A stretch of DNA of 15,902 nucleotides from a virus (IMGVR_UViG_3300045988_117751:1-15902); one strand, 5' to 3'; shown: positions 1-15,902, numbered from the stretch's first letter. The notes: generated by a model not told the origin, from the letters alone. A program made the numbers and translations.

Positions 1-27
1 TATGCCTATTCTATTCCAACCCTGTAC
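1..27. repeat. Left inverted terminal repeat (27 bp perfect; 31/32 if extended to nt 32)
   Basis: nt 1-27 TATGCCTATTCTATTCCAACCCTGTAC equals the reverse complement of nt 15876-15902. The first mismatch is at position 28 and positions 29-32 match again. Confidence 0.9.
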
Positions 28-1729: not shown

Positions 1730-2608
1730 CTACCATAACCCGAAAAATAAATCTTTGAACTCATCAATAACCTGCATATCAATGTTAATAAAAGTATCCC
1801 TATACTCAATCAGCATCTTACTATAACTTCCACCACCCATTTTCCCCGTAACACTCTCACTAAAAGCATCCCCCTTCGTACCGCTCTTAGCATTGGTATT
1901 ATTCAACGTGCTGTTAACCGTCTGACTATTAACACCCTTAACTTCACTTGTCCCAGCATCAGTAACAGTCTCGTCAACATCCGTATTACTATTACCGCTA
2001 TCCGTAACCTTCCTAGCGTTCGTTAAATATGTTTCATTTTCAACTCCAGTCAACGCCCCCTGTGGAGTATCACTATACAAGTCTTTAGAAGTCCCACCGG
2101 TACTCCCAACCTCTGTTGTTTTTCCGGTTCTCGTATTACCTGTCTTACCAGTATCCGTGCTACTTCCTTCACTCTGGGTCTGTCCCTTATTCTCATAACT
2201 GCCATGCTCTGTTTCCGTAACATCCCTCTGACTACTTCTCGTATAATCCACATCATAGAATGGTTCAAACTTTAACTTAGCGCTTTCATACAACTGGTTA
2301 TAATAAGGCATAATTTCTTCAAACTTAGTGTTCATCCAGAGCATCCAAATACCAACAGTCTCAGCACCTATCTCCCTCAGATAGTAATGTTTCAAAACCT
2401 TACTAACCAGTTTCTCACGATAAGCTTCATCAAAGATAGCGAAGTTAGACGTAACTACCTTATTCCAGCTATTACTCAGCACTTCATCCACATCAGAAGC
2501 ACCAACGCTACCCTCAAGTCCAGCTTTCTGTTCGCAAATAAATCTCACTTCTGTAGTATACTTACTCACCTTCCTCACCGCCTTCACTATCAACTTCACC
2601 GTCAACAT
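1730..2608 (-). CDS. Lower collar protein (gp11-like); start uncertain
   Basis: 292-aa ORF directly after the connector gene, matching the size and position of phi29 gp11. It has a central Thr/Ser/Gly-rich low-complexity segment. The ATG at 2608 has no obvious RBS and overlaps the connector by 47 nt. An in-frame GTG at 2569 overlaps the connector stop (GTGAGTAA) and may be the real start. Confidence 0.6.
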   Translation of the reverse strand: MLTVKLIVKAVRKVSKYTTEVRFICEQKAGLEGSVGASDVDEVLSNSWNKVVTSNFAIFDEAYREKLVSKVLKHYYLREIGAETVGIWMLWMNTKFEEIMPYYNQLYESAKLKFEPFYDVDYTRSSQRDVTETEHGSYENKGQTQSEGSSTDTGKTGNTRTGKTTEVGSTGGTSKDLYSDTPQGALTGVENETYLTNARKVTDSGNSNTDVDETVTDAGTSEVKGVNSQTVNSTLNNTNAKSGTKGDAFSESVTGKMGGGSYSKMLIEYRDTFINIDMQVIDEFKDLFFGLW

Positions 2609-3440
2609 CAGGAATCTGGAAATCTTCTCTATACTTCACGCTCACGTCCAGACCAAACAAATCATTAATCCTATCACACGCCTGTTCTCTCATAGCCAGT
2701 CTGCTATACCTACTCGCAACAGTTCCACCCTGGCTTCTCGTAACCTCATCAGTTATCAACCTTTCCCTCTTCTGATAACTAACATTGCTAATACCCAAGT
2801 ACGTCAGCGCTTCATTCCAAATCTGGCTTTTTAACTCATACAGTTTATCAGCGACAAAGGGTGCATCTGTTTTAAGAACTCCGAACCCCTTAATGTCCAA
2901 GTTCTTATCTCCAAATAAAACAGGACTATTACCGTCATACTCCTTATAGACATTTAAGAGTGACAACCTCTGTTTCTCATCGCACTGAATAAGAACAGGA
3001 GTTTTTTGTGCTTTAGCATTAATGTCAATCGCGCTATCTAAATCCCACAATCTTTGAGCGTAATACATGACATCCTGAGCACTCGGAACTCTCATATAGT
3101 TGTTCCATATAATGACACTATCTTTATCAGTGAAAGAGTCAGAATTGTAACCACTATATCGACTGTACGCTCTACGGACTTTAGGCTCACCATAGACATC
3201 AAAACTACCATTAGCCAGACACCCCAGAGCCAAATACCCCAGAACATCATCCTTAAAAAATAACGTCTGACCTGTCAGAAACAACTCCATTTCAAGATAT
3301 CTCACATCAACGCTTTCCGGTAATCCCTCCCACTTAAACATACTCATAGATAACTCGCATAATCTTCTCAGGTACATGTTATTTGAAAGCATGTTTTTCG
3401 CCAAACTTGACGAGAAATTATTTTTACCTCTTCTTCCCAC
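2562..3440 (-). CDS. Head-tail connector / portal (upper collar, gp10-like)
   Basis: The segment NAKAQKTPVLIQCDEKQRLSLLNVYKEYDGNSPVLF parallels the phi29 gp10 connector as I recall it (NAQKTPVLI..QLSL..VY..YEGNAPVIF). FKWEGLPESV parallels FEWENLPPTI. The N-terminus is basic (MGRRGK). The start codon is GTG at 3440, 8 nt after AGGAGG. Confidence 0.9.
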   Translation of the reverse strand: MGRRGKNNFSSSLAKNMLSNNMYLRRLCELSMSMFKWEGLPESVDVRYLEMELFLTGQTLFFKDDVLGYLALGCLANGSFDVYGEPKVRRAYSRYSGYNSDSFTDKDSVIIWNNYMRVPSAQDVMYYAQRLWDLDSAIDINAKAQKTPVLIQCDEKQRLSLLNVYKEYDGNSPVLFGDKNLDIKGFGVLKTDAPFVADKLYELKSQIWNEALTYLGISNVSYQKRERLITDEVTRSQGGTVASRYSRLAMREQACDRINDLFGLDVSVKYREDFQIPDVDGEVDSEGGEEGE

Positions 3441-9164: not shown

Positions 9165-9193
9165 ATTATAAAATAAGGGTTGACAAAAGTCAA
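9165..9193 (-). promoter_or_regulatory. Near-consensus sigma-70-type promoter for the lysis and structural operon
   Basis: On the minus strand: TTGACT (9193-9188), a 17-nt spacer, then TATAAT (9170-9165). It lies about 30 nt upstream of the holin ATG. Confidence 0.7.
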
Positions 9194-9208
9194 GTTATAT
9201 ATTAAACT
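9180..9208 (+). promoter_or_regulatory. Divergent promoter for the packaging ATPase
   Basis: On the plus strand: TTGACA (9180-9185), a 17-nt spacer, then TAAACT (9203-9208). Its -35 forms the palindrome TTGACAAAAGTCAA with the -35 of the opposing promoter. Confidence 0.5.
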
Positions 9209-9211
9209 AAT

Positions 9212-9284
9212 TAATAAGTAGTAATAAGTATTTCTTATAAGTGCTTATAAGTGTAACTTATTAATAACATTTTATTTATAAGTG
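9212..9284. repeat. Phased array of short repeats (consensus TWATAAGTR), likely regulator binding sites
   Basis: TAATAAGTA at 9212 and 9222. CTTATAAGTG at 9234 and 9244 in tandem, each containing the palindrome CTTATAAG. An inverted copy ACTTATTA at 9256. TTATAAGTG at 9276. The first four copies are spaced by 10, 13 and 10 bp. Confidence 0.6.
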
Positions 9285-9294
9285 GGTGAAATAG

Positions 9295-10323
9295 ATGTTT
9301 TATGACGGTACAAAGTTATTAAGCTTAAAAGATTTAAACGGTAACCAGCCAGAAATTTATATGTGTACTTCAAACCGAAGCGGCGGAAAGACTACATACT
9401 TTAGCAGACTGTTAGTAAATCGGTTTATCAAATATAGAGAAAAATTTGGACTGATATATAGATACAATTATGAGTTGGATGATGTTGCTGATAAGTTTTT
9501 TAAGGATATTGGCGAGCTGTTCTTCACAGGTTATGAAATGGAAAGTAAAAGAAGGGCAAATGGAATCTTTCATGAGCTATTTTTAAACGGAGAACCCTGT
9601 GGATATGCTGTAACTTTAAATAGTGCTGATACCATAAAGAAGTATAGTCATTTCTTTTCTGATATACAGCGACTTTTGTTTGACGAATTTCAGAGTGAAA
9701 CTAATCACTATTGCACCGATGAAGTTAAGAAGTTTATTAGCGTGCACACTACTATTGCAAGAGGACAGGGAAAACAGACAAGATATGTACCTGTATTCAT
9801 GTGTTCAAACCCTGTAAGTATTATCAATCCATACTATGTTAACATGGGTATAAGCTCTAGGCTTCAAGAGTCAACTAAATTCCTTAAAGGAAATGGCTTT
9901 GTATTAGAGCAAGGCTTTAACGAGAGTGCTAGCAAAGCTCAGACTGAAAGCCAATTTAATCAGGCTTTTGCTAATAATGAGTATGTTGCTTATAGTAGTC
10001 AGGCTGTATACTTGAATGATAATAAGGCGTTTATTGAAAAGCCTGTGGGGAATAGCAGATATATAGCTACGCTAAAATATAAGGGATGCAATTTTGCTGT
10101 AAGGGAATACACAGAAAGCGGCTACTTGTATTGTGACGATAGGGCGGATATGACATTTCCCACTAAAATTGTTGTTACTTGCGATGACCATAGTATTAAC
10201 TATGTGATGCTTAAAAGAAATGACTTTATGATTGCAAATTTCAGATATCTTTTTGAGCGTGGATGCTTTCGATTTAAAGATTTAAGATGTAAAGAAGCTA
10301 TATTGACAGCATTAAGCTATTGA
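9295..10323 (+). CDS. DNA packaging (encapsidation) ATPase, gp16-like
   Basis: 342 aa, against ~330 aa for phi29 gp16. Walker A NRSGGKTT and Walker B RLLFDEF. It is the only convincing plus-strand gene. Confidence 0.85.
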   Translation: MFYDGTKLLSLKDLNGNQPEIYMCTSNRSGGKTTYFSRLLVNRFIKYREKFGLIYRYNYELDDVADKFFKDIGELFFTGYEMESKRRANGIFHELFLNGEPCGYAVTLNSADTIKKYSHFFSDIQRLLFDEFQSETNHYCTDEVKKFISVHTTIARGQGKQTRYVPVFMCSNPVSIINPYYVNMGISSRLQESTKFLKGNGFVLEQGFNESASKAQTESQFNQAFANNEYVAYSSQAVYLNDNKAFIEKPVGNSRYIATLKYKGCNFAVREYTESGYLYCDDRADMTFPTKIVVTCDDHSINYVMLKRNDFMIANFRYLFERGCFRFKDLRCKEAILTALSY

Positions 10324-10435
10324 TATCTTCCAACGTTTGTTAACTTGAGTTGTATAGGAGTGCACTGGTTAAATGTCCAGCCTATAAACTGTCGTTGTTG
10401 CGGAACGCTTGCTTAACTTCGTTGGTTATAGATAT
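10323..10435 (+). ncRNA. Candidate structured RNA (possible pRNA analogue or ATPase 3' UTR element); strand not established
   Basis: An interrupted long-range helix closes the segment. ATATCT (10323-10328) pairs with AGATAT (10430-10435), CCAACG (10330-10335) with CGTTGG (10420-10425), and GTTAA (10339-10343) with TTAAC (10413-10417). An internal hairpin has TATAGG (10353-10358) pairing with CCTATA (10381-10386), and CTGG with CCAG inside it. No ORF is present. Confidence 0.3.
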
Positions 10436-10436
10436 A

Positions 10437-10482
10437 GAAAGCCCTGTATGAAACAATCGTATGATTGCCATACAGGGCTTTT
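10437..10482. terminator. Bidirectional rho-independent terminator shared by the ATPase gene and the replication operon
   Basis: A 10-bp stem, GCCCTGTATG (10441-10450) with CATACAGGGC (10469-10478), is flanked by AAA upstream and TTTT downstream. It therefore reads as a hairpin plus U tract on both strands, between convergent genes. Confidence 0.8.
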
Positions 10483-10487
10483 GTTAA

Positions 10488-10814
10488 TTAAAGAGTGTTA
10501 ACGTACCACTTATATTCATTTTTATCATCATTAATGATTGAAACAATTTCACCATCATATGGATATAACCTTTCTGCTATCATATCATAATTAGGTGAAC
10601 CTGTAATATATTCGGGTACTTCATTAATATAAAGGACAAGTTTTCTTTTCATGCACATCTTCACAATATTGTTATGAACTTCCTCATCTGATAATACTGT
10701 TGGCTCTTCTGGTTTATTCATACACATATCTGGGTAAGTGTTAGCAATGCACTGAGTACCATAAATACAATTTAATAATATCTTTGCTTCTTCTAATGTC
10801 AAATTAATTTTCAT
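10488..10814 (-). CDS. Hypothetical protein (last gene of the replication operon; gene-1 position)
   Basis: 108 aa. ATG at 10814 with RBS AAGGGGAA 7 nt upstream. No motif recognised. Confidence 0.65.
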   Translation of the reverse strand: MKINLTLEEAKILLNCIYGTQCIANTYPDMCMNKPEEPTVLSDEEVHNNIVKMCMKRKLVLYINEVPEYITGSPNYDMIAERLYPYDGEIVSIINDDKNEYKWYVNTL

Positions 10815-13608: not shown

Positions 13609-13627
13609 TGTTTAACCCCCTATCTGT

Positions 13628-13660
13628 AAAGAAAGGGCGGTGGACATTAACCCACCACCC
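13628..13660 (-). terminator. Intra-operon intrinsic terminator / attenuator between the SSB and terminal protein genes
   Basis: On the minus strand, GGGTGGTGG pairs with CCACCGCCC (9 bp including one G-U, 8-nt loop; 13660-13635), followed by TTTCTTT (13634-13628). Confidence 0.55.
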
Positions 13661-13680
13661 TAATTGAAACTTTTTATTTA

Positions 13681-14034
13681 TCAGAGCTTTGAAGTATCTA
13701 ACTCTACGTTAATAAATGTACGTCCAGCCTTTGTAATACCACTTGTTTTAATGATAGCGAACTGCTCACCGTCCATAATTTTCTCGATATCGGAAAGTGA
13801 CCGCTTTACTGTTTTTGACTGTGCGCTGTATACTTTCTTGTCTGGTGTGATGATAGATACAACCTCAGAAACTTCACCAGTTGTTTCCTTCACGTCATTA
13901 AATTCGATGGTGCCAGAAACTGTAATGCTAGTCCCGTCTGGAACATCCTTTAAAGATGTAATTCCTGGCGCTACGGTCATAAGATACTTCTCTACCTTAT
14001 CAAATTCTCTTGATTCTCTTGTGATTTCTACCAT
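13681..14034 (-). CDS. Single-stranded DNA-binding protein (p5-like)
   Basis: 117 aa with RBS AGGAGA. VPDGTSITVSG..., KVYSAQSKTVKRSLSDIEKI and GITKAGRTFINVEL resemble my recollection of phi29 p5 (LPDGTIIEAN..., SLYSAISKTVAEAASDLIDL, GTSSKGNVFFSLQL). Its position between the p6-like and TP genes matches phi29. Confidence 0.6.
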   Translation of the reverse strand: MVEITRESREFDKVEKYLMTVAPGITSLKDVPDGTSITVSGTIEFNDVKETTGEVSEVVSIITPDKKVYSAQSKTVKRSLSDIEKIMDGEQFAIIKTSGITKAGRTFINVELDTSKL

Positions 14035-14482: not shown

Positions 14483-14555
14483 TGGACTATACAGGAGTTG
14501 AACCTGTGACTAAGCGTTTATGAGACGCTTGCTCTGCCTACTGAGCTAATAGTCC
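14483..14555 (-). tRNA. tRNA with anticodon CAT (elongator Met or lysidine-dependent Ile2)
   Basis: Hand-folded 73-nt cloverleaf. Acceptor GGACTAT/ATAGTCC, D stem GCTC/GAGC, anticodon stem AGCGT/ACGCT, loop CT-CAT-AA, variable loop TAGTC, T stem ACAGG/CCTGT with loop TTCAACT, discriminator A. No encoded CCA. G1-C72 is paired and there are no three consecutive G-C pairs at the base of the anticodon stem, so it is not an initiator. Confidence 0.9.
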
Positions 14556-15875: not shown

Positions 15876-15902
15876 GTACAGGGTTGGAATAGAATAGGCA
15901 TA
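15876..15902. repeat. Right inverted terminal repeat
   Basis: This is the reverse complement of nt 1-27. Confidence 0.9.

Follow-up and report, generated by a model that had tools for sequence, protein, structure and literature searches.

To our knowledge, the prohead or packaging RNA (pRNA) of Bacillus phage phi29 is the only RNA that is essential as a structural part of a viral DNA-packaging motor. A 2024 review regards pRNA as restricted, so far as is known, to phi29 and its relatives among the Bacillus phages; in phi29 it is expressed from promoter A1 and lies 147-320 base pairs (bp) from the left genome end (PMC11476376). The phi29 pRNAs assemble into a ring, each molecule using its CE-loop to pair with the D-loop of its neighbor (PMC4201828, PMC2241910). 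The sole proposal outside Bacillus concerns Streptococcus phage Cp-1, for which covariance models, while able to find pRNA in Bacillus phages, are unreliable (PMC6266182); this putative pRNA goes back to Martin et al. 1996, as that source cites it. The GenBank record of Cp-1 carries no annotation of the RNA. Here we describe an RNA element of about 116 nucleotides (nt) that directly follows the DNA-packaging ATPase gene in IMGVR_UViG_3300045988_117751:1-15902, a viral stretch of 15,902 nt that we call the window, together with its counterparts in related phages. We consider it probable (roughly 0.78) that the element serves as pRNA in phi29-like phages of a gut lineage that is distant and uncultivated. 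No description of this RNA family was found in the literature.

The element lies in the non-coding gap (10324-10487) between the open reading frame (ORF) of the ATPase (9295-10323, + strand) and the next ORF (10488-10814, - strand), and its 5' end falls inside the ATPase stop codon. The window fold consists of an end-closing helix (helix A), a three-way junction, a long bulged arm (helix C) with a small cap hairpin (helix E), and a short second hairpin (helix D), followed by a terminator. RNAfold, applied to the first ~116 nt, gave a closing helix of 6 + 6 + 5 = 17 bp and a first hairpin with a 10-bp lower stem, a 6-nt bulge on its 5' side and a 4-bp upper stem. The original prediction, drawn from the window by itself, had described a 164-nt non-coding block between the ATPase stop codon and the convergent operon, an interrupted 17-bp helix joining the ends, and a weaker second hairpin; the ORF table and RNAfold reproduce all three. 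It had also described a hairpin whose asymmetric bulge holds the self-complementary GTGCAC. The hairpin and its bulge were recovered, but the self-complementarity is incidental, because the relatives have AGCAC, ACGCAC or AGACAC; the conserved feature is the pairing of the bulge with the D loop, as described below.

Related loci were taken from a scan of IMG/VR with the ATPase (80 loci, 69-98% protein identity) and from GenBank (one locus), which with the window made 82 sources. Twenty-eight representatives, less than 93% identical to each other, were aligned with MAFFT, and a covariance model, R1, was built from this alignment. Every one of the 82 sources has exactly one match to R1, which scores 52.7-110.4 bits and lies, without exception, on the strand of the ATPase and 0-52 nt after the ATPase stop codon. 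The sequence behind the stop codon opens with GGUAUC(U) in all 81 relatives and closes ~110 nt further on with AGAUAU(A), after which a GC-rich hairpin follows. The length of the element ranges from 114 to 120 nt, with a family median of 116.5 nt, as compared with ~118 nt for phi29 pRNA.

When the full structure was laid over the MAFFT alignment of the 28 representatives, 90.9% of the cells could pair, versus 31-41% when the partners were shifted by one to three columns, and double compensatory changes were seen at 25 of the 33 pairs. The covariation score was 0.529, versus 0.06-0.11 for shifted partners, and none of 500 shuffles reached the observed values. RNAalifold recovered helices A1-A3, E and D from the same representatives, with compensatory changes at 19 of the 24 predicted pairs. 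For the 68 distinct sequences aligned by R1, the corresponding figures were 96.5% of cells paired (30-46% in the shifted controls), compensatory changes at 23 of 28 pairs, and a covariation score of 0.626 (at most 0.092 for shifted partners). Because this second alignment was fitted to R1, the MAFFT figures are the more conservative. Every pair of A2 and A3 shows compensatory change, the UAUC/GAUA core of A1 is invariant, and the distal end of helix A as a whole (GGUAUCU/AGAUAUA) is nearly so; the pairs of helix E, the top three pairs of helix C and the stem of helix D covary as well. The primary sequence of the element thus diverges among the relatives while its pairs show compensatory changes, and the conserved single-stranded stretches are a GCA in the bulge and a GAA-rich sequence in the E loop. 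Judged by this pattern, the element is a conserved, covarying, structured RNA: it is present in 82 of 82 sources, with compensatory changes at most pairs.

The strand, which had been left open before, could be assigned from the same alignments. Among the paired cells, G-U combinations number 111 versus 7 for A-C (65 versus 7 after the conserved closing G-U pair is dropped), and the structure therefore exists in the RNA that is read in the ATPase direction, the + strand of the window. A small ORF running across the element was also looked for, and no frame was open in more than 6 of the 28 representatives.

In every intact sequence the bulge is complementary to the D loop, and each of the 28 representatives has 3-6 contiguous bp of this pairing. 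The bulge sequence AGC faces the D-loop sequence GCU in most clades, whereas the pairing is ACGC with GCGU in the L050 group, AGAC with GUCU in L047, UUGCA with UGCAA in L037, UAGCAU with AUGCUA in L017, GCAA with UUGC in the L021 clade (where the register is shifted by one), and UGCA with UGCG in the window. Compensatory changes were found at three bulge-loop positions; pair 45-107, for example, is AU in 33 sequences, CG in 7, UA in 4, UG in 3 and GC in 2, and pair 46-106 is GC in 65 and AU in 2. The covariation score of the contact is 0.193, versus at most 0.058 with shifted partners. Bulge and loop taken from the same RNA form on average 4.29 contiguous bp (minimum 3), versus 3.48 when they are taken from different RNAs (permutation p < 1e-4). 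Even within the near-identical lineage of the window itself a contact position varies, being U-G, U-A or C-G. As read from the sequences, this complementarity matches the CE-loop/D-loop contact that defines phi29 pRNA and is the most specific likeness between the two RNAs. That the contact is intermolecular, as in phi29, is suggested by geometric analogy only, helix C having 10 bp here and 9 in phi29, and helix D 4-5 and 4-6 bp, respectively.

The closest known RNA is the pRNA of phi29 and its relatives SF5, B103, M2/Nf, GA-1 and the Goe4 group (Rfam family RF00044). The 120-nt pRNA of phi29, folded by minimum free energy, and the RF00044 consensus, which scored 145.4 bits on phi29 as a positive control, served as references. 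When the R1 consensus was set beside them, the order of elements from 5' to 3' was identical. The first strand of helix A leads through a junction into helix C, in which a single base is bulged. Next come a bulge that is confined to the 5' side, helix E (4 bp) and its loop, and the second strand of helix C, which has no bulge opposite the first. A junction that is short and often rich in U, the hairpin of helix D and the second strand of helix A complete the order. The median dimensions of the family, with those of phi29 in brackets, are 20 bp (24 bp) for helix A, 10 bp (9 bp) for helix C, 6 nt (9 nt) for the bulge, 4 bp (4 bp) for helix E, 8 nt (6 nt) for the E loop and 5 bp (6 bp) for helix D. 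The family thus combines a ~120-nt core closed by a long, bulged helix A with the pRNA order of elements around a three-way junction and a covarying complementarity between the 5'-side bulge and the D loop. The original prediction had seen in the window the general layout of phi29 pRNA and, beside the ATPase gene, a candidate pRNA analogue; the topology matches the Rfam pRNA consensus element by element, and with conservation, covariation and strand it supports that candidate, for which we infer a packaging function. The features of the window are collected in Table 1.

Table 1. Positions in the window of the pRNA-like element and its parts, its transcription unit and the connector gene
Feature	Position	Strand	Basis or remark
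Sigma-A-type promoter of the ATPase/RNA unit, TTGACA-17-TAAACT	9180..9208	+	
gp16-type DNA encapsidation ATPase, 342 amino acids	9295..10323	+	PF05894 Podovirus_Gp16, E = 5.5e-29; ORF table
pRNA-like domain, whole, 116 nt	10322..10437	+	Covariance model R1, 85.9 bits; sole window match with E < 0.05
Helix A, 5' strand (10323-10328, 10330-10335, 10339-10343)	10323..10343	+	RNAfold; covariation; paired with 10430-10435, 10420-10425 and 10413-10417, respectively
Helix A, 3' strand (10413-10417, 10420-10425, 10430-10435)	10413..10435	+	RNAfold; covariation
Conserved 4-nt bulge UUAU in helix A, 3' strand	10426-10429	+	
C/E arm (helix C 10348-10358/10381-10390; helix E 10365-10368/10377-10380; E loop 10369-10376)	10348..10390	+	
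5'-side bulge AGUGCA, CE-loop equivalent	10359..10364	+	UGCA (10361-10364) complementary to D loop
Helix D hairpin, CGUU/AACG, loop GUUGCGG (10397-10403)	10393..10407	+	The weaker second hairpin in RNAfold; UGCG (10399-10402) pairs with bulge
Intrinsic terminator, hairpin 10438-10481, UUUUGUU tail	10438..10486	+	-28.1 kcal/mol
gp10-type connector, basic N-terminus (M)GRRGK	2562..3440	-	PF05352, E = 2.6e-68; translation; presumed docking partner

One could envision the following mode of action. The RNA, which is co-transcribed with the ATPase from the promoter and ends at the terminator, would either be freed from the mRNA by processing or become active once translation of the mRNA is over. Copies might then join head to tail through the bulge of one and the loop of its neighbor (UGCA with UGCG in the window phage), forming a ring of five or six that would sit on the basic connector N-termini at the prohead portal. 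Helix A, pointing outward, could dock the gp16-type ATPase with its nearly invariant distal end, and the RNA would in this way bridge motor and portal during DNA packaging, as it does in phi29.

The transcription unit bears directly on the first alternative. All 28 representatives have a strong TTGnnn-17-TATAAT-like promoter 27-86 nt upstream of the ATPase start, and no promoter of the RNA's own was found within 150 nt upstream in 27 of them, such a site being present in one. A strong hairpin, of unrelated sequence in each case, follows 0-4 nt after the RNA in all 28. The strong terminator hairpin that had been predicted for the window appears clearly on folding (-28 kcal/mol, with a U tract), and it is probably bidirectional, given its A-tract and U-tract flanks; a simple terminator scan of the window reported none because the loop limit of that scan is 8 nt. 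The unit thus reads promoter, ATPase, RNA, terminator, and since the RNA has no promoter of its own, it is physically the 3' untranslated region (UTR) of the ATPase mRNA. It follows that the pRNA and 3' UTR interpretations are not mutually exclusive. The original prediction had regarded a 3' UTR stabilizer as equally likely; its physical half stands, and its equality does not.

One alternative, then, is that the element acts only in cis, as a 3' UTR structure of the ATPase mRNA whose three-way junction is held closed by a pseudoknot between bulge and loop of the same molecule, and that it protects against 3' exonucleases, aids termination or serves as an autoregulatory binding site for the ATPase, with no role in the motor. 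Co-transcription with the ATPase and the position of the element, which adjoins both stop codon and terminator, are as such an element would have them, and the covariation of bulge and loop fits an intramolecular pseudoknot equally well. However, the terminator hairpin alone would already stabilize the 3' end, and other phi29-like phages do without any 3' UTR behind the ATPase gene. The match to pRNA, including the unusual 5'-side bulge about 10 bp up one arm, facing a hairpin of 4-5 bp, would have to be a coincidence. In phi29, arms of these lengths make contact between molecules (PMC4201828). The element is also found in just that group of phages for whose motor such an RNA is known to be needed. 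For these reasons we regard a purely cis-acting element as improbable.

Another scenario is that a regulatory small RNA (sRNA) is processed from the ATPase 3' UTR and acts in trans, pairing with phage or host mRNAs through its bulge or its E loop. One class of bacterial sRNAs typically arises in this way, from a 3' UTR that carries a terminator, and the single-stranded GCA and the GAA-rich E loop are conserved. These conserved stretches are very short, however, and the bulge covaries with the D loop of its own RNA instead of remaining constant for an external target. What is conserved is mostly structure, in helix A with its 20 bp, and this would be unusual for sRNAs that act through a seed; we think that regulation in trans is very unlikely. 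That no RNA exists at all, the gap between the convergent operons holding a chance fold or a DNA-level element (an inverted repeat bound by a protein, or a replication or packaging signal), is scarcely credible: folding of the single + strand sequence is no better than that of shuffles (z = -0.74), but the excess of G-U over A-C would not be expected of DNA hairpins or duplex sites, 23 of 28 pairs show compensatory changes in a diverging sequence, and position and strand are fixed in 82 of 82 sources.

Several observations weigh against the pRNA interpretation itself. First, the single-sequence folding energy of the core is not significant on the + strand, where the 117-nt core alone gave the z-score just cited, and it is marginal on the - strand (z = -2.4); the whole gap gave z = -4.3 and -6.5 on folding because of the terminator hairpin and not because of the core. 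Single-sequence folding energy was set aside as evidence either way, and since the single sequence does no better than chance, the reality of the element rests on the position and covariation seen in the relatives. Second, the Rfam pRNA model, which recognizes phi29, found no match to the element: RF00044 gave nothing at E <= 10 in the window or in 176 nt, nor at E <= 0.1 in 8 relatives, and its gathering score of 100 bits was not reached. Conversely, R1 misses phi29 pRNA, its best match in phi29 (E = 0.42) lying inside a coding gene and off the pRNA locus. As covariance models detect no similarity in either direction, an argument for common descent can draw on architecture and context only. 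Third, the lack of an own promoter, which phi29 pRNA has, means that a processing step must be assumed. Fourth, helix A shares its first bases with the stop codon (UGA-UAUC, UAG-GUAUC), and a ribosome terminating on the mRNA would therefore open the helix. Finally, the bulge-loop complementarity could, by its sequence, reflect an intramolecular pseudoknot as well as a contact between molecules.

A search with the 4227 models of Rfam 15, which include ribozymes and other families, gave only chance-level, terminator-driven matches, and none at E <= 0.1 in 8 relatives. Taking these points together, we would class the element on present sequence evidence as a new variant of pRNA, with the same architecture and probably the same mechanism, lying outside the Rfam family as defined by its model and differing in genomic position and expression.

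The gene setting was examined in the window and its relatives. Identical 27-nt inverted repeats (TATGCCTATTCTATTCCAACCCTGTAC) lie at both ends of the 15,902-bp window (1-27 and 15876-15902), and the window encodes a phi29-type major capsid protein, a tail knob, a gp10-type connector, a lysin, a gp16-type encapsidation ATPase and a family B DNA polymerase of the protein-primed type (Pfam matches PF05894, PF05352, PF25622, PF20934 and PF03175). From these terminal repeats and this gene set, the window is a complete linear genome of a phi29-like podovirus, which presumably replicates by protein priming. Its motor is of the phi29 kind, with a small gp16-type ATPase that lacks a nuclease domain and a gp10-type connector. 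The ATPase gene is the only + strand gene of the window and lies between the structural and the replication genes, all on the - strand; in the relatives examined it also stands alone on its strand, with genes of the opposite strand or a genome end beside it. The ATPase is only ~24-26% identical to those of Bacillus phages and ~28% to that of the closest cultured phage, and its nearest GenBank records are unannotated human-faecal contigs. Translation of the connector gene reads (GTG)-GRRGK, in agreement with the MGRRGK start noted in the original prediction, and resembles the N-terminus of the phi29 connector, MARKRS. Among 31 relatives (51-94% identical), 2-4 basic residues are kept at positions 2-7. 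A pRNA of the phi29 type attaches to the connector of the prohead, is needed for packaging and is missing from mature virions. Such a basic N-terminus fits docking of an RNA, but it may be a general property of the connector family.

Placement of an RNA behind the ATPase gene as a general trait of phi29-like phages was considered and rejected. The gap after this gene is 31 nt or less in Enterococcus phage Athos, Rhizobium phage RHph_N3_8, Clostridium phage phiCP7R and Curtobacterium phage Fairywren, and in Cp-1 the ATPase gene is directly followed by, and overlaps, the holin gene. As these cultured phages leave no room for it, the placement is a trait of two groups only, the present clade and a sister clade made up of 12-kb gut phages. 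In the latter, whose ATPase is 41% identical, we noticed an element of ~83 nt with the same layout after the ATPase stop codon (L083:4003-4085; L088-L105, about 2509-2590). R1 misses this short element, in which helix A is AUAUCACCGUG/CGCGGUGCUAUUAU, with A-U to G-C changes, and 7-8 nt of the bulge GUGCUAAA are complementary to the D hairpin GUUUAGCA. R1 also gave nothing at E <= 1 in four more distant phages (MT836152, Eggerthella phage LE1-1, OP549880 and Clostridium phage CI130P1); a shorter version of the element can be seen by eye in MT836152.

Several further observations were made on individual loci. In L061 (4028-4132; 52.7 bits), an unrelated U/C-rich stretch replaces the C/E arm while helices A and D are intact; the genome might be defective or recombinant, or the assembly might be wrong. 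Two relatives have a spacer of 40-52 nt between the ATPase stop codon and the RNA (L016:4027-4078 and L001:10025-10063). The L016 spacer contains an AT-rich inverted repeat (TTATTCACAA/TTGTGAATAA) and a weak promoter-like sequence, TTGTGA-17-TACTAT, that ends just before GGUAUC, and some lineages may have acquired a separate start site for the RNA. Upstream of the window ATPase, two tandem direct copies of CTTATAAGTG (9234-9253, + strand) lie in the leader between the promoter and the start codon, and this repeat might act as an operator of the ATPase/RNA unit. The + strand promoter overlaps with a divergent promoter on the - strand, TTGACT-17-TATAAT (9193-9165). The early/replication block of the window contains a tRNA-Met gene (anticodon CAT; 69 bits to RF00005) at 14483-14555 on the - strand, whereas the phi29 genome is reported to be without tRNA genes (PMC11476376). 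A weak match to L20_leader at 13623-13750 on the - strand (23.8 bits, E = 0.61; gathering score 58.7) owes its score to a terminator-like hairpin and U tract after a 245-amino-acid ORF, and is probably just a terminator. Finally, the contigs of one sub-clade (L021-L044, L048 and L049) stop 100-400 nt after the RNA, and several of them (L030, L033 and L043) finish with ...GAAGTTGAAATGAAATACCACTC and, behind it, the Illumina adapter AGATCGGAAGAGC, which was left in the public contigs. The stops of this sub-clade appear to be true genome ends.

If the pRNA interpretation is true, RNA-bridged motors would not be an oddity of Bacillus phages, and the truly conserved features of pRNA would be its topology, its arm lengths, the bulge-loop contact and the bulged helix A, and not its sequence. 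It would also mean that there is a different route of making pRNA, from the ATPase mRNA itself. One could go further and suppose that pRNA as the 3' UTR of the ATPase mRNA forms a self-contained, co-inherited "motor cassette" (promoter, gp16, pRNA, terminator) in a linkage that is older than the phi29 arrangement, and that gp16-type motors far outside the Bacillus phages depend on pRNA in general, the pRNAs of the individual lineages having diverged too far for sequence models; we offer this idea tentatively and are inclined to doubt it. In practical terms, R1 is a covariance model that can be used to annotate these abundant gut phages, and the lineage would supply dozens of natural variants of the three-way junction and kissing loop for RNA nanotechnology; on the tentative idea just given, the 68 variants would be a ready set of orthogonal modules.

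Compared with known systems, the element has something in common with three. The putative pRNA of Cp-1 likewise belongs to a phi29-like phage outside Bacillus and is likewise not reliably found by covariance models based on Bacillus phages; that proposal was made from a single sequence, whereas 68 distinct covarying sequences stand behind the present family, and the location differs. Bacterial sRNAs derived from 3' UTRs share the terminator of the upstream mRNA and act by seed pairing with mRNA targets. The present RNA resembles them in its likely biogenesis, with no promoter of its own, a shared transcript and terminator, and a need for 5' processing. It differs from them in that a large, closed three-way-junction fold and an internal or self complementarity are conserved.

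The closest system remains phi29 pRNA. Both RNAs belong to phi29-like phages that replicate by protein priming and have a gp16-type ATPase and a gp10-type connector whose N-terminus is basic. In both, a hairpin domain lies on the 3' side of a core of ~116-120 nt; here the terminator takes the place of domain II. In both, helix A is formed from the two ends and has a conserved bulge of 3-4 nt, and the three-way junction carries a helix C of 9-10 bp with a 5'-side bulge, a 4-bp helix E with its loop, and a short helix D. Bulge (CE loop) and D loop are complementary over 3-6 bp and covary in both. The present family differs from phi29 in its bulge (6-7 nt versus 9), its E loop (8-10 nt versus 6) and its longer junction strands (median 3/2/3 nt versus 1/3/0), and the bulge in helix A is on the 3' strand instead of the 5' strand. 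The gene of phi29 pRNA is expressed early from its own promoter near the genome end, whereas in the window the RNA directly follows the ATPase stop codon, in mid-genome and without such a promoter. In the sub-clade whose contigs stop soon after the RNA, however, the ATPase/RNA cassette lies a few hundred bp from the end and points to it, just as the pRNA of phi29 lies near a terminus and points to it.

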